Below are positions 2,469 to 19,400 of a stretch of 21,680 nt of DNA, piece by piece (position 1 is the first letter of the stretch; every line of letters starts with the position of its first letter). The stretch lies in NCBI GenBank assembly GCA_018400815.1, contig JAGYLS010000024.1:1-21680 (forward strand), in the 5' to 3' direction. This DNA comes from Candidatus Oleincola secundus (GTDB lineage Bacteria > Atribacterota > Phoenicimicrobiia > Phoenicimicrobiales > Stramentimicrobiaceae). A model generated the notes under the pieces. The model worked only from the letters and a program-made list of their open reading frames with translations. It was not told the origin of the DNA and did no database searches. The position numbers and the translations under genes are program-made.

Positions 2469-4831
2469 GAAATAAACTATGGTAACCCCTTCTCCTCCTT
2501 CACGGGAGTCACCATAACGATATGACTTAACATAAGATAACTGGCTTAGTAATTGAGCAACATTTTCCCTCAAAATACCCTTACCCTTGCCATGAATTAT
2601 ATATACCGGAGAAACATTTAACAAAAAAGCGTCATCAAGATATTTTTCCAGTCTAATTTGTGCATCCCTTACAGTCATTTGGCGTATATTAATTTTGTGA
2701 CTAAATTTCGATTTTTCTCTAACCGATTTCTTTGTAAGAGTAACTTGATATATAGTCTATTTTGTCAGAATTAACTTTCTTTATCTGCGTTTTATTTGTT
2801 CTTTTAATATCATCAAAAGGAATTGTGAGTTTAAGATGATTAATTTGGATTAAACATTGGTTCTTTTTTTTATTTTTTCAATAATTACTCCTTCTCTATT
2901 AAGACTTTTAATTAATACAAAATCACCTTCATTGAATTGTTCTTCTTTTTCTGAGAAGGTTTATGTTTATTTATATTCTTTTCTATTTCTTTGCTCAATC
3001 GTTTTAAAGAATTCTGTTCTTCTGTAAATTTTCCTTATCAGGTCTTTTGTTTTTATAGAATTAATAATTTCCTTAGCTCTCTTTTCTGTAGAAGAAATAA
3101 TTTCTTCTGCTTCCCGATATGCATCAGTACAATCTTTTTTTCTCACTTTCAAATGTACCAATTTTTGTTTCAAGCTCTTTTTTTTAATTCTACAATTTCC
3201 CTCTTTTCCCTTTCAGAGTACTCTAAGTTAACCGTCATTAGATTTCTATCTTTCTCCATCTTTTTAATCAGGTTTTCTAAATCCAGTTTTTCTTTTTCTA
3301 AATACTTCTGCGCATCTTTTATCACCCTATCAGACATCCCTAACTTTTCTGCAACAGAGAAGGCACAACTTTTTCCGGGAAGTCCAATTGTGATTTCATA
3401 AGTGGGCTGTAGTGTATCTTCGTCAAATTCCACTCTGGCATTCATCACTCGGTCAGTCAAATAAGCGTAAGCTTTAATACTATCATGATGTGTAGTACTC
3501 AAAACCTTTCCTCCCTTGGACCTTAGTGAATCAAGAATCGCCATGCTTAGAGCAGAACCCTCTGAAGGATCGGTACCAGCGCCTAATTCATCCAACAAAA
3601 CCAATGAACTTTCATCAGCCAAATCCAACACTTCAATAATCTGTTTCATATGGGCAGAAAATGTGCTTAGGTTTTGTTCTATGCTCTGTTCATCACCAAT
3701 ATCTGCAAATATTTTACTAAAAACAGCAATTTCACTATCTATACCAGCAGGAATATGTAATCCGGATTGGGTCATCAGATGTAATAATCCAACTGTTTTT
3801 AAGGTAACAGTTTTTCCTCCAGTATTAGGTCCGGTAACTACCAATACATCAAACTCTTTTCCTAATTCAATATTGATTGGAACAACAGAGGTTTTTAGAA
3901 GCGGATGCCTTGCTTTCTTTAAATAAATAATACCTCTGTTATTGACCTTTGGCTCAATTGCTTTCATCTGAAGACTTAGCTTGGCTTTTGCATTTATAAA
4001 GTCCAAATTGCCTAATTCTTGATATGAATTTAAAATATCTACGCTATTCTGACCAACTAAAGCAGTTAGTTTTTGCAGTACCTTATATTCTTCTTTTTTT
4101 TCTTCCTGGTATAGCTCTCTTAGCTCATTATTAAGTTTTACTATTGGTAATGGTTCAACAAAGACAGTAACTCCGCTTTCAGACTTATCATGAACAATTC
4201 CAGGGAATTTACCTTTTTCTTGCTGCTTTATAGGCAAAACAAACCTGCCCTGGCGCATAGTAATAATATCATCCTGGATAAAAGTACGGTTTTGGGGATC
4301 CCTAACCATATGTTCCAGCTTATCACGAATATTTTTTTCTGTACTGCGAATCTGCTGTCGTATTTTCTTTAAAACCGTGCTAGCTTCATCAAGAATCTCA
4401 GCTTCTTCATCAATGCACTTTTTTATCTCTTTTTCCAGCAACCTAAAGACTTTTAATTTATCAATTTTGCTTTTGATAAGGGGATATTTTTCATCAGATA
4501 TTTTGTTAAAAAAATCTTTTATTAAATAAAAACATTCTAATACTCTACTAATAATTAAGAGTGTTTTTGCAGTCAAGATGCTACCATGTATCTCAGAATG
4601 TTTTATATCACCTTCAATATCGTCCAAAGCTATAAATGGTGGACTGCCTTCTATTTCTAAAATGTTTTTCATCTCCGTAGTTTCTCGCTGCCATTCCTGA
4701 ATAAGCAAAAAATCTGACGTAGGAGTTAATTTTTTTAGAAACCTTTCGCCTGGAGAAGTATAAACTTCTCTTTTTAACAATTCTTTTATTTTAGGGTACT
4801 CTAATATTGTAAAAAGGTGTTTATTCATCAC
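2466..4831 (-). CDS. mutS2: MutS2 (endonuclease / ribosome-splitting factor); 3' part broken by about 6-7 frameshifts, so either assembly error or pseudogene
   Basis: The 553-aa ORF has Walker A TGPNTGGKT, DIGDEQSIEQNLSTFS and LLDELGAGTDP. Downstream fragments in changing frames give a coiled coil (DAYREAEEII), KOW (FNEGDFVLIKSLNREGVII) and Smr domain (IIHGKGKGILR...EGGEGVTIVYF, stop at 2466-2468). Confidence 0.9.
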
Positions 4832-8941: not shown

Positions 8942-8997
8942 TAAAAAAAGAAGTTTACAATTTTTCCCCTTTAAAGGGACGAAAATTATAAACTTCT
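8942..8997 (-). terminator. Intrinsic terminator (attenuator) of the pheS T-box
   Basis: Minus-strand hairpin AGAAGTTTATAATTTT..CCCT-TTAA-AGGG..AAAATTGTAAACTTCT followed by a U run; overlaps the 3' strand of the antiterminator. Confidence 0.85.
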
Positions 8998-9180
8998 CCG
9001 CGTTACCACCCTTTTTGACTTGTTTTAATTCAAGTCCTAACTCAATTCTTTTTTAACGGAAAGACCCGTCCAAACCTACTTTGTAATTTTCAGTCGGCAC
9101 ACTAAAAGTGAAATTCAATAAAATTATTATCAGTTGAGAAAATTTTTAACTAATAATAATTTTATCTACTATCTTTTTTA
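8942..9180 (-). ncRNA. Phe T-box riboswitch (transcriptional) upstream of pheS
   Basis: T-box AGGG-TGGTAAC-GCG (8999-9012) pairs with CGT-CCCT. Stem III GACTTG/CAAGTC; IIA/B with CCGTTA and pseudoknot partner AAAGA; Stem II with GAA/AGTA. Specifier loop AGTA...GAAT-TTC-A, with UUC (Phe) at 9110-9112. Confidence 0.92.
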
Positions 9181-9195
9181 TTTACTTTTTTATTT

Positions 9196-12774: not shown

Positions 12775-12849
12775 TGGTGGGCGGTACTGGGATTGAACCA
12801 GTGACCTCTTCCGCGTCAAGGAAGCATTCTTCCACTGAACTAACCGCCC
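12775..12849 (-). tRNA. tRNA-Val(GAC)
   Basis: Cloverleaf GGGCGGT/ACCGCCC-A-CCA; anticodon arm CTTCC-TTGACGC-GGAAG; GGTTCAATCC T-arm. Confidence 0.95.
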
Positions 12850-12865
12850 ACTTATTTTTTATTTG

Positions 12866-12939
12866 TGGAGGCGGCACTCGGATTTGAACCGAGGATGAAG
12901 GATTTGCAATCCTCTGCCTTCCCACTTGGCTATGCCGCC
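12866..12939 (-). tRNA. tRNA-Cys(GCA)
   Basis: GGCGGCA/TGCCGCC-T-CCA (U73); anticodon loop TTGCAAA. Confidence 0.95.
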
Positions 12940-12957
12940 TCATAAAATAGAAAAAAA

Positions 12958-13032
12958 TGGAGCGGAAAACGGGATTTGAACCCGCGACCCTCGCCTTGGC
13001 AAGGCGATGCTCTACCACTGAGCTATTTCCGC
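12958..13032 (-). tRNA. tRNA-Gly(GCC)
   Basis: GCGGAAA/TTTCCGC-T-CCA; anticodon arm TCGCC-TTGCCAA-GGCGA. Confidence 0.96.
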
Positions 13033-13046
13033 ACAATTTTAAAGCA

Positions 13047-13122
13047 TGGTGCCGAGACCCAGAGTTGAACTGGGGACACGTGGATTTTCAGTCCACTGCT
13101 CTACCGACTGAGCTATCTCGGC
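13047..13122 (-). tRNA. tRNA-Phe(GAA)
   Basis: GCCGAGA/TCTCGGC-A-CCA; anticodon arm GTGGA-CTGAAAA-TCCAC. Confidence 0.96.
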
Positions 13123-13150
13123 AGATTGTATTTAAAAAAATCATTTTCGA

Positions 13151-13229
13151 TGGCGGGGTCGACGGGATTTGAACCCGCGATCTCCTGCGTGACAGGCAGG
13201 CGTGTTAAACCGAGCTGCACTACGACCCC
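13151..13229 (-). tRNA. tRNA-Asp(GTC)
   Basis: GGGGTCG/CGACCCC-G-CCA (G73); anticodon arm CCTGC-CTGTCAC-GCAGG. Confidence 0.95.
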
Positions 13230-13242
13230 ATATTAAAAATAA

Positions 13243-13318
13243 TGGTAGGCGGAACAGGGCTTGAACCTGTGACCCCTGGCTTGTAAAGCCAGTGCTCTCC
13301 CAACTGAGCTACCCGCCC
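13243..13318 (-). tRNA. tRNA-Val(TAC)
   Basis: GGGCGGG/TCCGCCT-A-CCA; anticodon arm CTGGC-TTTACAA-GCCAG. Confidence 0.95.
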
Positions 13319-14018: not shown

Positions 14019-16517
14019 TCAATGAACTACGATATTTAACAATTTACCTGATACATATATAATCTTATCAATTTTTTTATTATTAATCCACTTTTTAACT
14101 TTTGGTAATTTTAATACTTTTTCTTTAATATCCTCTTCGGAAATATCTGATAATATTTTTATCTTATCCCTTAATTTACCGTTTATTTGTACAACGATGA
14201 GTATTTCCTCTTCTTTCAATGCTTCAATGTTATATTCTGGCCACGGTTCTAAATACAGACTTTTTTTGTATCCAATTTCGTGCCATAATTCTTCACAAAA
14301 ATGTGGAGCAATGGGATTAAGCAATTTGATAGTTGTCTCTATAGCATCTTTAAAAACCAATTTATGTGCCTGACTCATCTGGGAAACTTTCAAATCAAAA
14401 CTATATAAGCTATTTACCAATTCCATAATAGCACTTATAGCAGTATTGAAATGGAACCGCTCTTCAATATCCTCAGTTACCTTTTTTATAGTTTGATGTA
14501 TTTTTCTTTTTAAATCCTTAATATCCTTATTCATAGTATCAGTATTGTTTGAAATGCTGGTATGCTCTTTTTCCTGAAACAGTTTGTGATATTGATATAC
14601 AAGTCGCCAGACACGATTTAAAAAACGAGAGGCGCCTTCAATCCCCTTGTCGCTCCACTCCATGTCAACTTCAGGAGGGCTGGCAAAAAGTATCATCACT
14701 CTGGTCGCATCAATACCATACTGGTTGAATATCTCACCCGGGGTAACTACATTTCCTTTAGACTTTGACATAGCAGCACCATCTTTGCACACCATCCCCT
14801 GTGTAAATAGTCTCTTAAATGGTTCTTTAAAACGAAGGTACCCCATATCATTTAGAGCTTTGACAAAAAAACGGGAATAAAGTAGATGCAAAATTGCGTG
14901 TTCCACACCACCAATATATTGATCAACCGGCATCCAGTAATGTAATTCTTCATCATCAAAAGGTTTATCAGGCAAATTTGGAGAACAAAAACGTAAATAA
15001 TACCAGGAAGAACAAACAAAAGTATCCATGGTATCTGTTTCTCTTCTTGCTTTTCCTCCACAGTTAGGACAAGTGGTATAAAGAAATTCCTTACTAGATA
15101 ACAATGGTGATAACCCTGTAGGTTTAAAATTAACATCTTCCGGTAAATAAACAGGCAAATCAGTTTCAGGTACAGGGACAATTCCGCATTTCTCACAATA
15201 GATTATAGGTATCGGCGCACCCCAATATCGTTGTCTTGATATTAACCAATCTCTTAACCGGTAATTGATTTGTTTTTTTCCTAAATTTTTATCTTCCAGG
15301 TATTTAGTAATGACTTCTTTTGCTTTTAAGCTATGCAAACCATTGAATTCACCAGAATTTACCATTACCCCTTCTCCGTCATAAGCTTCTTTTAAAGTTT
15401 CGCCTGAAAGTGCTGCATTTTCAGGTTGAATAACCACCTTTACAGGAAGGTTATATTTTCGAGCAAATTCTAAATCTCGTTGATCATGTGCCGGTACTGC
15501 CATAACCATTCCGGTTCCATACTCCATCAAAACATAATTAGCAACCCATATGGGAACTTTTTCCTGATTAAGCGGATTAATGGCAAATTGTCCGGTAAAG
15601 CATCCTCTTTTTTCAGTTGTAGCTAAATCTTTTTCAGATACATTTTCCTTGGCAATTTCATTTCTGAATTGCTTAACTTGTTTTTCGTATGATGTTCCCC
15701 TAATAAGTTGTTCAACCATGGGATGTTCAGGAGAAAGAACAAAAAACGTTACTCCAAAAAGTGTATCCGGTCGTGTAGTAAAGACTGGTATAGTTTCATC
15801 TCTTCCGGAAATCTTAAATTCTACTTTAGCGCCTTCACTTCGGCCTATCCAGTTCTTCTGCATAGTTAGCACTCGTTCAGGCCACTCCTCAAGTATATCC
15901 ATATCATCCAAGAGTTGTTGAGCATAATCAGTAATTTTGAAAAACCACTGGGATAATTCCTTTTTTGTTACCTCAGCACCACATCTCTCGCATCTACCAT
16001 TTACAACCTGCTCATTTGCAAGAACAGTTGCACAAGATGGGCACCAATTAACCACAGCCTTCTTCTTATAAGCAAGTCTATTTTTATATAGTTGTAAAAA
16101 TATCCATTGAGTCCATTTATAATATTCAGGGCTACAAGTTGAAATCTCCCGATTCCAATCATAGGTTATTCCCATTGACTGAAGGGTATTTTTCATTTTC
16201 TGTATATTGTTCTTTGTCCATATTGCCGGATGGATCTGATTCTTGATAGCAGCATTCTCGGCAGGTAAACCGAAAGAATCCCAGCCCATAGGATGTAAAA
16301 TATTAAATCCACGACTTTGTTTATAACGTGCCACAACGTCACCTATAACATAGTTCTTAACATGTCCCATGTGTGGCTCTCCGGAAGGATAAGGGAACAT
16401 TTCCAACACATAATATTCTTTTTTATTTTTATCAACATTACTTTCAAAAAAATTCTGACTATGCCAGTATTTCTGCCATTTAGTTTCAACATCCTTAAAA
16501 TCGTATGTTTCTTTCAT
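14019..16517 (-). CDS. leuS: Leucyl-tRNA synthetase
   Basis: [13 protein letters not shown] (HIGH), FTTRPDT and VPAHDQRD editing domain, [19 protein letters not shown] (KMSKS), C-terminal VQINGKLR. Confidence 0.98.
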
Positions 16518-16541
16518 CCTGATTGTCTCCCTTAAAAATAG

Positions 16542-16586
16542 AAAAACCCGTCACCTGTAATTGATAAATACATTACAAGGGACGAG
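16542..16586 (-). terminator. Intrinsic terminator (attenuator) of the leuS T-box
   Basis: Minus-strand CTCGTC-CCTTGTAAT...ATTACAGG-T-GACGGG followed by TTTTT; mutually exclusive with the antiterminator. Confidence 0.85.
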
Positions 16587-16623
16587 ATTTCCCGTGGTAC
16601 CACCCTTTTTTAGTAGATATTTA

Positions 16624-16699
16624 TGGTGGAGCTGGCGGGAATCGAACCCGCGACCTCCTCCACGCCAAGGAGGCACTCTCCCGACTGAGCTACAGCCCC
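16624..16699 (-). tRNA. tRNA-Ala(GGC), nested within the leuS T-box leader
   Basis: 76-nt cloverleaf GGGGCTG/CAGCTCC-A-CCA with the G3:U70 Ala determinant; anticodon arm CCTCC-TTGGCGT-GGAGG; canonical D- and T-arms. Confidence 0.96.
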
Positions 16700-16890
16700 A
16701 TCTACCCTCTTTGTTCATTTAACGTCTAAAAACGACCTGAGTTACTTTCTAAAAAATTTTTAACTCAGGTATTAAACAGGTGAGCTTTTTGAGATAATGT
16801 ATCAGTTTCCACCATTACTGACTCTCTGCTATCATTACAACTCAATAAATTTCCTGTACTCTATTTTGCTAATTTTAAAAAACTTTTATC

Positions 16891-16919
16891 ATTATAATTA
16901 ATGTAATTTGAAAAGTCAA
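16891..16919 (-). promoter_or_regulatory. Sigma70-type promoter for the T-box/tRNA-Ala/leuS transcript
   Basis: TTGACT-17 bp-TATAAT, near consensus. Confidence 0.85.
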
Positions 16920-16986
16920 TCAATGTGTTTAATATAGTTGCTATTTAATAAAATTGCTAAAAGATAATAAAAACCAACAATGAATG

Positions 16987-17033
16987 AATAAGTGCAGGTC
17001 ATCTTAAAATTAATTAATGTTCCTGCACTCATT
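16987..17033. terminator. Hairpin downstream of the small ORF, possible terminator
   Basis: AATAAGTGCAGG...CCTGCACTCATT, a 12-bp inverted repeat whose one mismatch becomes G-U on the minus strand. Confidence 0.45.
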
Positions 17034-17090
17034 TTAATTTTTAACATTTAATACTTTTAATATTTGAGGATATATTTTTATAAGTCTGAT

Positions 17091-17174
17091 TTATTCATCT
17101 CCTAGCCACCAAATGACTCCCACAATAGCTGCTATTATTGCCGCAATCCAATACCATTCTAAACCTTCAAACAT
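17091..17174 (-). CDS. 27-aa single-pass membrane peptide MFEGLEWYWIAAIIAAIVGVIWWLGDE (below the ORF-track cutoff)
   Basis: ATG preceded by strong SD AAGGGAGGTG; hydrophobic core flanked by Trp; higher GC than the flanks; own candidate promoter and a downstream hairpin. Confidence 0.8.
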   Translation of the reverse strand: MFEGLEWYWIAAIIAAIVGVIWWLGDE

Positions 17175-17215
17175 TTCTTTTCCACCTCCCTTATTATCAT
17201 ATTTATCTTGTTTTT

Positions 17216-17244
17216 ATTATAGTAACAAGACCTCTTTAAAACAA
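17216..17244 (-). promoter_or_regulatory. Candidate promoter of the small ORF
   Basis: TTGTTT-17 bp-TATAAT, overlapped by repeated TCTTGTT/AACAAGA motifs. Confidence 0.55.
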
Positions 17245-17297
17245 GACTTTTTAAAAAATAATTTATATACAAATTATTTTAATGATATTATTCTTGT

Positions 17298-19400
17298 CTA
17301 TGATTCTGATTCATTCTCTTTTTTAGCTTTTTCTACAATTTCCTGGGCAATTTGGGAAGGAACTTCCTCATAATGTGAAAATTTCATCGTAAAGGTACCT
17401 CTACCCTGGGTAATAGAACGCAAATCAATAGAATATCTGAATATTTCCGCTTGAGCAACCTGTGCACGAATAATTTGTCTACCTTTTTCTGATTCTTCCA
17501 TTCCCATAATCTTTCCTCGTTTACTGTTTAAATCCCCGATAATATCTCCCATATAATCTTTTGGAACAGTTACTGCCAGCTCATAAATTGGTTCTAAAAG
17601 AATAGGATTTGCCTGAGCAGCTCCTTTTTTGAATGCCATAGATCCAGCAACCTTAAAAGCCATTTCCGATGAATCAACGGTATGGTAACTTCCATCATAT
17701 AATGTTGCCTTAATATCTACGGTGGGATAGCCTGCAAATACTCCTTTTTTCATGGCTTCTATAATACCTTTTTCGACTGCCGGACGATATTGTTTTGGTA
17801 TTACACCACCAACTATCTTATCTAAAAACTCAAAACTCTTTCCTCGTTCTTGGGGCTCAAACTCTACAAAACAATGTCCATATTGCCCCCGACCTCCGGA
17901 TTGTTTTTTATATTTTCCTTCTGCCTGTATCTTTTTACGTATTGTTTCTTTGTAGCCAACTTTTGGTGTACTCTTTTCTATTTCCACACCAAATTTCGTT
18001 TCCATTGTTTCAATAACTACATCCAAGTGAGATTCTCCCATACCAGCAATAATAGTCTCTCCGGTGTCTTCATCCCGATAAACTTGAATAGTTGGTTCCT
18101 CTTCTACAATACGGTTAATAGCAATACTAAGCTTATCCTCGTCACCCTTACTCTTGGGAAATATTGCAAATTTCATAATTGGCTCAGGATAGTCAATCCT
18201 ATTGAATTCAATGGGATGTTCTTTATCACATAGAGTATCCCCGGTGTTTGTTTTCTTTAGCTTAGCAATAGCACCAATACCTCCGGGTATTACTTTAGAA
18301 ACAGGGGCCTGTTCTTTCCCCTGCATTCTGTAAATTTTGGCAACCTTATTTTCAATATCATGAGTTGCATTGTAGACAGAAGAATCTGAACTTAATTCTC
18401 CAGAGAAAACTCTAAAATAGGTTAAGTTCCCCACATAGGGATCTGCTACAGTCTTAAATACCAGGGCAGAAAACGGTGTTTCATTCAATGAGCGTTTTAT
18501 CTTTATATTCTTTTGCTCTTTTAAATCTTTTACTTCAATTTCCGGTAAATCAACCGGACTTGGAAAATAATCTTTTATAAAATCAAGTAGCAATTCAATG
18601 CCGATATTCTTAGTAGCTGAACCGCATAATACTGGAAAAACTTTTCTTTCTATCATTCCACCTCTTAGGCAAGAAAGAATTTCTTCCTGGCTCAGCTCTT
18701 CTCCGTCAAGATATTTCATCAATATTTCATCATCGTATTCTGTAACTGCTTCTATCATCTTTTGACGGTATTCATTTGTTTTTTCTTTTAGGTCATCCGG
18801 AATATCTTTCTCCTCAAACTGACTTTTGCCTTCAGAGCCTGGTTTAAAATAATATGCTTTCAACTTTAACAAGTCAATAACTCCTTCAAAAGTCTCCTCT
18901 GATCCTATTGGCAGCTGTATTGGAACTGCATTTTGTCCGAAATAATCTTTAATCATCTGACTAGTCCGATTAAAATCAGCTCTTTCCCTGTCCATTTTAT
19001 TAATAAAGAAAATACTTGGTAATTTAAATTCTTCGGAATAATCCCAGACTTTCTCAGTCTGAACTTCCACACCAGATACACCACAAACAACTATTAACGC
19101 AGTATCCACTACACGTAAAGTTGTTTTTGTATCGATTATAAAATCGAGATATCCCGGTGTGTCAATAATATTAAAAGTTGAGTCTTTCCAATTAAGATAA
19201 GCTAAGGAAGAATTTATAGTTATACCCCTCTTGGTTTCTTTTGGATCATAGTCAGAAACGGTATTGCCTTGTTCTATCTTTCCTAACCGAGTTATCATAT
19301 TCGAGTCATAAAGCATTGCTTCAGTCAGGGAGGTCTTACCGGAATCTCCATGACCAACAACTGCAAAAGTTCTTACCTTGTCAACATCATTTTTAGTCAC
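17298..19400 (-). CDS. fusA: Elongation factor G paralogue (EF-G2-like)
   Basis: G1 GHGDSGKT, RGITI, DTPGYLDF, NKMD, domain IV KKQSGGRGQYG, DGSYHTVDSSEMAF. GTG start with SD AAGGAGG; located outside the str operon. Confidence 0.92.
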   Translation of the reverse strand: MTKNDVDKVRTFAVVGHGDSGKTSLTEAMLYDSNMITRLGKIEQGNTVSDYDPKETKRGITINSSLAYLNWKDSTFNIIDTPGYLDFIIDTKTTLRVVDTALIVVCGVSGVEVQTEKVWDYSEEFKLPSIFFINKMDRERADFNRTSQMIKDYFGQNAVPIQLPIGSEETFEGVIDLLKLKAYYFKPGSEGKSQFEEKDIPDDLKEKTNEYRQKMIEAVTEYDDEILMKYLDGEELSQEEILSCLRGGMIERKVFPVLCGSATKNIGIELLLDFIKDYFPSPVDLPEIEVKDLKEQKNIKIKRSLNETPFSALVFKTVADPYVGNLTYFRVFSGELSSDSSVYNATHDIENKVAKIYRMQGKEQAPVSKVIPGGIGAIAKLKKTNTGDTLCDKEHPIEFNRIDYPEPIMKFAIFPKSKGDEDKLSIAINRIVEEEPTIQVYRDEDTGETIIAGMGESHLDVVIETMETKFGVEIEKSTPKVGYKETIRKKIQAEGKYKKQSGGRGQYGHCFVEFEPQERGKSFEFLDKIVGGVIPKQYRPAVEKGIIEAMKKGVFAGYPTVDIKATLYDGSYHTVDSSEMAFKVAGSMAFKKGAAQANPILLEPIYELAVTVPKDYMGDIIGDLNSKRGKIMGMEESEKGRQIIRAQVAQAEIFRYSIDLRSITQGRGTFTMKFSHYEEVPSQIAQEIVEKAKKENESES

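Follow-up and report, generated by a model that had tools for sequence, protein, structure and literature searches.

A tRNA-Ala(GGC) gene in the Stem III loop of a leucine T-box upstream of leuS in Candidatus Oleincola secundus and its relatives

Background

Upstream of the leuS gene of Candidatus Oleincola secundus, standard annotation gives two overlapping calls, a T-box riboswitch and a tRNA gene, and leaves them unconnected. The question raised by this locus is whether both belong to a single RNA and, if so, what a tRNA for alanine does inside a switch for leucine. The window, i.e., the whole stretch of 21,680 nt that was analysed, covers positions 1 to 21,680 of contig JAGYLS010000024.1 (GenBank assembly GCA_018400815.1, phylum Atribacterota), and all coordinates refer to it. 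A tRNA nested in a T-box was not found in the T-box literature searched, and is absent from the extracts of Wels 2008 (PMC2494555), of TBDB (PMC7778990), of the reviews PMC10424219 and PMC7583486, and of the papers on T-box variants PMC11404447 and PMC9177973; older comparative surveys or their supplements may mention it.

Organization of the leuS leader

The features of the locus are listed in Table 1. The initial annotation had laid out a single minus-strand unit, and every part of it was found where it had been placed. The T-box model RF00230 matched 16575-16870 over its full length (model positions 1-219) with 96.6 bits (E 1.9e-20), above the gathering threshold of 93 with the insert included, and the alignment itself put a 76-nt insertion into the Stem III loop. 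The loop is an 81-nt stretch containing a complete tRNA gene, to which RF00005 was aligned at 16627-16699 with 67 bits; the location of a tRNA-Ala(GGC) in Stem III of a T-box was thus borne out by RF00230, RF00005, and ARAGORN. Matches to the tmRNA model covered the tRNA only and were below the cut-off, and the tmRNA of this genome lies on another contig, so that this identity was rejected.

Table 1. Coordinates of the leuS leader and gene within the window
Feature	Position	Strand	Basis and remarks
Sigma-70-type promoter, TTGACT-17 nt-TATAAT	16891..16919	-	Consensus match only, 11/12 positions
T-box Stem I	16770..16864	-	RF00230 alignment; AG bulge 16827-16822, GGUG apical motif 16813-16810, specifier loop
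Leu specifier codon CUC	16782..16784	-	RF00230 alignment; read by tRNA-Leu(GAG)
Stem II (16769-16736) and Stem IIA/B (16735-16720)	16720..16769	-	RF00230 alignment
Purine string 5' of Stem III (RRRxG discriminator motif)	16706..16711	-	Sequence and RF00230 alignment
Stem III 5' arm, (G)GTAGAT	16700..16706	-	Doubles as tRNA 5' leader, positions -7 to -1
tRNA-Ala(GGC) gene, 76 nt, with G3-U70, A73, and encoded CCA	16624..16699	-	ARAGORN; forms the Stem III loop
AU-rich 3' trailer, 5 nt, from CCA to Stem III 3' arm	16619..16623	-	Probable 3' processing site
Stem III 3' arm, ATCTAC(T)	16612..16618	-	Followed by discriminator AA from 16611
Antiterminator: helix A1, 7-nt bulge UGGUACC (16602-16596), helix A2	16578..16606	-	RF00230 alignment and folding
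Intrinsic terminator hairpin and U-tract	16534..16586	-	5' arm is the antiterminator 3' strand, CTCGTCCC
leuS, leucine-tRNA ligase, 832 aa	14019..16517	-	TIGR00396, 1121 bits, cut-off 548

The helix that encloses the tRNA (GTAGAT/ATCTAC) is extended by a G16706-U16612 wobble, and its predicted pair probabilities were 0.75-0.96. In unconstrained thermodynamic folding the acceptor stem of the nested tRNA reached a probability of only ~0.3, and a fold other than the cloverleaf was favoured. The discriminator motif given as 5'-RRRxG-Stem III-AA-3' in extracts of a review (PMC7583486) is present in the leuS T-box, and its helix covaries. The specifier CUC agrees with the downstream leuS, and the cognate tRNA-Leu(GAG) is encoded in the genome with an ACCA end that is complementary to the UGGU of the antiterminator bulge (16602-16599). 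Folding energies were -15.9 kcal/mol or lower for the terminator versus -7.5 for the antiterminator, with one strand common to both. The leuS terminator was not reported by a simple terminator scan, which allows loops of 3-8 nt; the loop here is 10 nt long.

The promoter in Table 1 was the top of 13 promoter-like sites in 16400-17300, where shuffled sequences averaged 4.5 sites. A separate promoter between Stem I and the tRNA was also considered and rejected, as no better site was found there. Judged by its sequence and structure, the T-box is a member of the class I family and looks to be in working order.

Distribution of the nested arrangement

Among 30 leuS loci (this genome and 29 relatives), 29 carried a tRNA-Ala(GGC) followed by an antiterminator; the thirtieth stops at a contig end and matches by the nesting pattern. 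The exact nesting pattern was present in 45 of 86 genomes of the phylum Atribacterota, the other carriers being 18 of 21 members of the same family and 26 of 30 members of the sister family, with 0 of 34 in the remaining five families. Since identical junctions recur in 44 other genomes of the phylum, misassembly at the tRNA borders was excluded, and the one-off insertion that absence from relatives would have indicated does not describe this locus. Outside the phylum, the pattern was found in 40 of 201 sampled genomes of Bacillota (sample centred on a Desulfotruncus genome) and in 28 of 201 of Chloroflexota (centred on a Ktedonobacteraceae genome), with two matches to a reversed-pattern control in each; both counts are lower bounds, a locus with a variant bulge (L314) having been missed.

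A scan of species genomes, with a pattern that required TCCACCA and was thus biased toward alanine tRNAs, gave at least 120 loci, and 22 of the matches listed were nested tRNA-Ala(GGC) genes. The carriers among the matches listed comprised Bacillota-titled entries (Desulfotruncus, Syntrophomonas, Thermosyntropha, Peptococcaceae, Clostridia, and others), Chloroflexota (Chloroflexia, Ktedonobacteria, and Limnocylindria), and two poorly named bins. leuS was within the locus in 15 of these 22; in the others the first gene reached was ilvE, a GNAT gene, or an acyl-CoA ligase. An Rfam T-box was confirmed in 17 of 19 nested loci tested from other phyla (9 above the cut-off). The CUC specifier motif was found in 58 of 65 nested loci, and the seven without it comprised four with CUC in a variant context, one cut by a contig end, and two damaged loci; it was also present in 20 of 20 further nested loci, 19 of them with leuS nearby.

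No other tRNA species was found nested in a T-box. A pattern that excluded U70 gave 66 metagenome matches and the general pattern gave five matches on viral contigs, none of them a T-box, in searches that depended on an encoded CCA and the exact bulge motif and may therefore miss rare cases. Both crude T-box features occurred in 1 of 71 matches to alternative patterns versus 53 of 65 positives, and that single match had no Rfam T-box.

The nested gene is the only tRNA-Ala(GGC) found among 46 tRNA calls of this 86%-complete genome; the possibility of a second copy had been raised in the initial annotation. The gene was single in 80 of 80 genomes of the phylum with a match and in 61 of 66 nested genomes of the two other phyla. 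GCC makes up 21.5% of 23,517 alanine codons in the long ORFs of the genome. A tRNA-Ala(UGC) was not found and is probably unassembled, which leaves the need of this genome for the GGC isoacceptor unsupported. The phyletic pattern suggests that the arrangement is old and probably of single origin.

Two further features of the nested loci were recorded. In the Chloroflexota loci L052, L060, L274, L279, L280, and L281 a free tRNA-Ala(CGC) lies 330-750 nt upstream of the nested tRNA on the same strand. Position 32 was U or A, with U38, in 65 of 65 nested copies and C32 with G38 was present in 9 of 9 non-nested Bacillota copies, a contrast that is only a hint, as the search for non-nested copies (L310-L319) excluded A32.

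Selection on the tRNA and the enclosing helix

An alignment was made of 40 of the 65 nested loci, omitting near-duplicates, some further relatives, two damaged loci (L179 and L188), and six with longer arms (L046, L052, L060, L131, L141, and L160). Pairing in the four stems of the nested tRNA was complete (100%), compensatory changes were seen at 10 of 21 pairs, and 40 of 40 sequences had G3-U70. The mean identity of the nested tRNA was 0.96, compared with 0.94-0.99 for neighbouring free tRNAs, and U was found at position -1 in 62 of 65 nested loci versus 33 of 46 tRNA genes of the genome.

Covariation of the enclosing stem, a point raised in the initial annotation, was found across the aligned nested loci. 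The basal five base pairs of Stem III were 81.7% paired versus 68.7 +/- 1.6 in shuffles, with 29 two-sided changes versus 6.4 and 0 of 500 shuffles as high, a test that is inflated by related sequences; controls with a slid register were 14-51% paired. When arms were swapped between loci of the other phyla, pairing fell from 4.3 to 2.8 (0 of 20000 permutations as high, again inflated by related sequences). Within the phylum of the window the same swap was not significant (5.82 vs 5.74, 3577 of 20000 permutations as high) because the enclosing stem is nearly invariant there. Support for the duplex from shuffled 3' flanks was weak for individual loci, with 20 of 60 below p 0.05. Taken over the aligned sequences, this pattern indicates that both the tRNA and the helix around it are under selection.

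Loss of the T-box with retention of the tRNA

The T-box is gone, and the tRNA and leuS are kept, in 33 relatives and one Bacillota genome (L316). In the five other families the tRNA lay just upstream of leuS without a T-box in 32 of 32 genomes having the tRNA, preceded at a distance of 12-25 nt by a -10 hexamer and followed by a terminator. Across the 34 T-box-less loci, leuS was downstream in 33, a -10 hexamer was within 30 nt of the tRNA in 32, and a terminator starting with the motif of the antiterminator strand (CUCGUCC) was found in 28. The 5' arm of this terminator, CTCG(T/C)C(C/T), equals the 3' strand of the T-box antiterminator in 27 of the 32 genomes and in G037, a member of the sister family; the remaining five have close variants, and the motif follows 0 of 45 other tRNA genes of the Candidatus Oleincola secundus genome. 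The T-box-less relatives thus show a riboswitch loss that leaves behind a recognisable terminator relic.

Bacillota locus L316 has the same relic form, and in L312, a locus without leuS from another Bacillota genome, the upstream gene at which the tRNA is located appears to be the same. Intermediate states were also seen: G032 (one assembly) appears to keep the promoter, tRNA, and antiterminator with Stem I to Stem IIA/B gone, G014 has a decayed Stem I and a T-box score of 47.5 bits, and in G003 a promoter lies 45 nt before the tRNA. A leuS leader with a T-box and without the tRNA was not seen among the fetched leaders of this phylum. In all five T-box-less genomes that were tested, 5-6 T-boxes remain at other loci.

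The T-box-less state is better explained by loss than by gain, in view of the relic motif and of the nested loci in two other phyla. Because the T-box is gone while the tRNA and leuS remain, the tRNA appears as the persistent part of the arrangement. The number of independent losses, like the single origin, would follow from taxonomy groups and the relic motif. In loci L167-L176, L284-L306, and L316 the tRNA and leuS are separated by a strong terminator and there is little space for a promoter, and the relic raises the question of how leuS is expressed behind it.

Proposed transcription and maturation of the nested tRNA

The locus is probably best explained as a class I leucine T-box that doubles as the transcription unit of tRNA-Ala(GGC), the tRNA being a constitutive passenger. 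Polymerase would start near 16884 and would always transcribe the tRNA, which would be made in both states of the switch because it is upstream of the on/off terminator. Stem III would close round the tRNA, as sensing would need only Stem III's base and the flanking purines. The tRNA would thereby occupy the one loop in which a T-box can accommodate extra length, given that the discriminator uses the two ends of Stem III and no other part of it (extracts of PMC11404447). Uncharged tRNA-Leu(GAG) would still bridge the specifier and the UGGU bulge and decide on read-through into leuS. The nested tRNA would not be a cis ligand, a role that was rejected because its anticodon is wrong and its 3' end runs on into the transcript. 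After the decision, either a cut in the AU-rich trailer by an enzyme of the RNase Y or E/G type or the opening of Stem III would free the 5' leader; RNase P would then cut at 16700/16699, and trimming to the encoded CCA would give the mature tRNA-Ala, in the same way from terminated and read-through transcripts. The nesting would be kept because the tRNA depends on the promoter and terminator of the T-box, while the T-box could be deleted from around the tRNA.

The proposal in the initial annotation that the leader transcript is a tRNA-Ala precursor irrespective of leuS induction is well supported by this comparison of genomes, in that no other tRNA-Ala(GGC) gene was found here, the gene is single throughout the phylum genomes with a match, and the tRNA retains a promoter and the old terminator after loss of the T-box. 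RNase P RNA, RnpA, RNase Y, and RNase E/G were above cut-off in 5 of 5 genomes tested, and no RNase J was above cut-off in the same five. Fifteen RNA runs share part of the stretch (word share at most 0.33), of which four were examined, all as assembled contigs. One RNA contig spans 16149-16705 and another 16603-16754; the upstream intergenic region has similar depth and DNA may be present, and the contig ends at 16705-16707 fall where a tRNA common to many organisms begins.

Excision most likely follows the decision, with the trailer cut or Stem III opening first, given that transcriptional T-boxes decide once and within a short window (extracts of PMC7583486), that transcription reaches the terminator U-tract just 78 nt after completing the tRNA, and that Stem III is predicted to conceal the leader. 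In family f1, which includes this genome, pairing is predicted for leader positions -1 to -7 (mean unpaired probability 0.04-0.25), the hiding is partial in family f2, and in other phyla the mean is 0.41-0.79. As a consequence of the pairing in family f1, the ordering step has to be assumed. The strict pairing of an alanine tRNA with a leucine switch in three phyla is explained by a passive passenger only through single origin.

Processing might instead itself be the regulation, which is unlikely. RNase P and 3' cutting would then dismantle the switch, as a timer, as a release of tRNA-Leu, or as the source of a new 5' end and altered stability for leuS mRNA; in the reverse form, bound uncharged tRNA-Leu would clamp Stem III, hide the leader, and delay tRNA-Ala maturation in leucine starvation. 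Sequestration of the leader in Stem III, as predicted for family f1, fits these ideas, since pairing of the leader inhibits RNase P (extracts of PMC9433436) and a helix masking the tRNA 5' leader controls it in designed theophylline-aptamer riboswitches (extracts of PMC8925977), but the sequestration is lineage-specific. tRNA-Ala(GGC) and a Leu specifier stay combined in all three phyla, and leuS mRNA would necessarily acquire a new 5' end whenever the tRNA was excised from a read-through transcript. Against this, the distance from the finished tRNA to the U-tract would leave little time for a cut before the decision, 13 other T-box loci of the genome contain no tRNA, and several lineages retain the tRNA with their T-box lost or broken, so that maturation of the tRNA does not need the T-box. 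The timer form has the further difficulty that the cuts would fall in the Stem III loop, whose base helix would keep both halves joined, and would not by themselves split the sensor; an RNase P timer is thus less likely than the passenger model. It is rather unlikely that the riboswitch is coupled in both directions, with bound uncharged tRNA-Leu locking Stem III and gating the release of tRNA-Ala, and excision dismantling the switch and resetting the 5' end and lifetime of leuS mRNA. If it were, leucine status would control the maturation of an alanine tRNA, a tRNA-to-tRNA signalling of a kind not found in the literature searched.

A structural role of the nested tRNA within the switch, as a fast-folding scaffold, a pause signal, or a cis competitor through its ACCA end, is quite improbable. 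This end is complementary to the UGGU bulge 22 nt downstream, the insert adds the time of transcribing ~80 nt between Stem I and the antiterminator, and T-box domains are noted to carry unexplained insertions in extracts of PMC7583486. The same extracts state that one extra 3' base turns a tRNA into a mimic of the charged form, as which a 3'-extended tRNA would act; moreover, the nested tRNA retains all identity and decoding features, is conserved beyond the needs of a scaffold, and survives alone after loss of the T-box.

Very improbable is a vestigial T-box on its way to the T-box-less state, with leuS expressed through leaky read-through or from its own promoter: T-boxes are decayed or deleted in the close relatives G014, G032 (antiterminator only), G037, and G003, but here the score exceeds the gathering threshold even with the insert, the specifier, discriminator motif, bulge, and both alternative hairpins are intact, and the nested pattern is retained in 44 relatives. 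Integration and assembly breaks are common at tRNA genes, but an assembly artefact, a one-off insertion, or an integrative-element remnant is refuted by the comparative data, as the same junctions recur in the carriers of all three phyla (45/86, 40/201, and 28/201 genomes), the enclosing stem shows compensatory changes, the five viral pattern matches are not T-boxes, and the neighbours of the locus are leuS and an EF-G gene.

Comparison with known systems

The locus resembles class I T-boxes (RF00230, e.g., the Bacillus subtilis glyQS, tyrS, and leuS leaders) in its Stem I specifier, Stem II, Stem IIA/B, discriminator, UGGN bulge, alternative terminator, and downstream aminoacyl-tRNA synthetase gene, and differs from them in its Stem III loop, where an entire and apparently functional gene for a tRNA of another amino acid resides. 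In mixed tRNA-mRNA operons, e.g., thrU-tyrU-glyT-thrT-tufB of Escherichia coli, tRNAs lie before or between genes. As in that operon, a tRNA would be cut from a transcript that continues into a protein gene, and the T-box-less relatives, with promoter, tRNA-Ala, terminator, and leuS, resemble mixed operons; the tRNA of the nested loci lies instead inside a riboswitch fold. The thrS T-box leader of B. subtilis is cleaved near its terminator, where RNase J acts. An endonucleolytic cut would likewise give the synthetase mRNA a new 5' end here, although the thrS leader is not known to release a tRNA and RNase J was not above cut-off in the genomes tested.

Extra structured elements in the 3' sensing domain are also described for stem Sa of staphylococcal glyS and for Stem III/helix A2 insertions of translational T-boxes (extracts of PMC9177973 and PMC7583486). 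Those insertions are not genes and their excision is not expected, whereas the element here would be a separate gene product that outlives the T-box. As in the synthetic RNase P riboswitches in extracts of PMC8925977, a helix is predicted to hide seven leader nucleotides beside the tRNA in family f1; the synthetic devices are designed and switched by a ligand, and the masking here is a prediction that is not conserved outside family f1.

This gene inside a riboswitch is conserved in at least three bacterial phyla. The arrangement is a natural experiment on whether Stem III matters only at its ends, and on the order in which co-transcriptional switching, RNase P action, and 3' processing occur on one RNA. 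It also suggests a use for an otherwise discarded terminated leader, and marks Stem III as a possible site for cargo in RNA engineering.

Other T-boxes and neighbouring features

The leuS T-box ranked second of 16 T-box matches in the genome, and in 10 other aligned T-boxes of the genome the Stem III loops were much shorter and contained no tRNA. A second T-box in the window, at 8972-9190 on the minus strand with 74.4 bits (below the cut-off), precedes pheS-pheT and is without the usual Stem I apical motifs. In T-boxes L001 and L005 (contigs C24 and C132), Stem IIA/B is separated from Stem III by a related insertion of 32-38 nt, and a second discriminator domain, which is partial, comes after the T-box. 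Another T-box is followed 40 nt downstream by a match resembling the guanidine-I riboswitch (L008:1751-1872 on the plus strand, 51 bits, cut-off 63), and L008 is possibly a tandem of two riboswitch classes.

Co-occurrence of RNase Y and RNase E/G with no RNase J above cut-off was noted in this genome, G001, G006, G008, and G029. At 17091-17174 on the minus strand, upstream of the leuS promoter, lies an ORF for a hydrophobic peptide of 27 aa with a strong ribosome-binding site; it had no match in an NCBIfam search, and a similar ORF is visible in G014 (L188). Downstream of leuS, six tRNA genes at 12775-13318 on the minus strand are located between ssb and thrS in an order that is kept in relatives, and the nearby thrS has no Rfam T-box match. 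MutS2 is usually ~780 aa long, and the MutS2-like ORF at 3170-4831 on the minus strand (553 aa) looks short and may be frameshifted.
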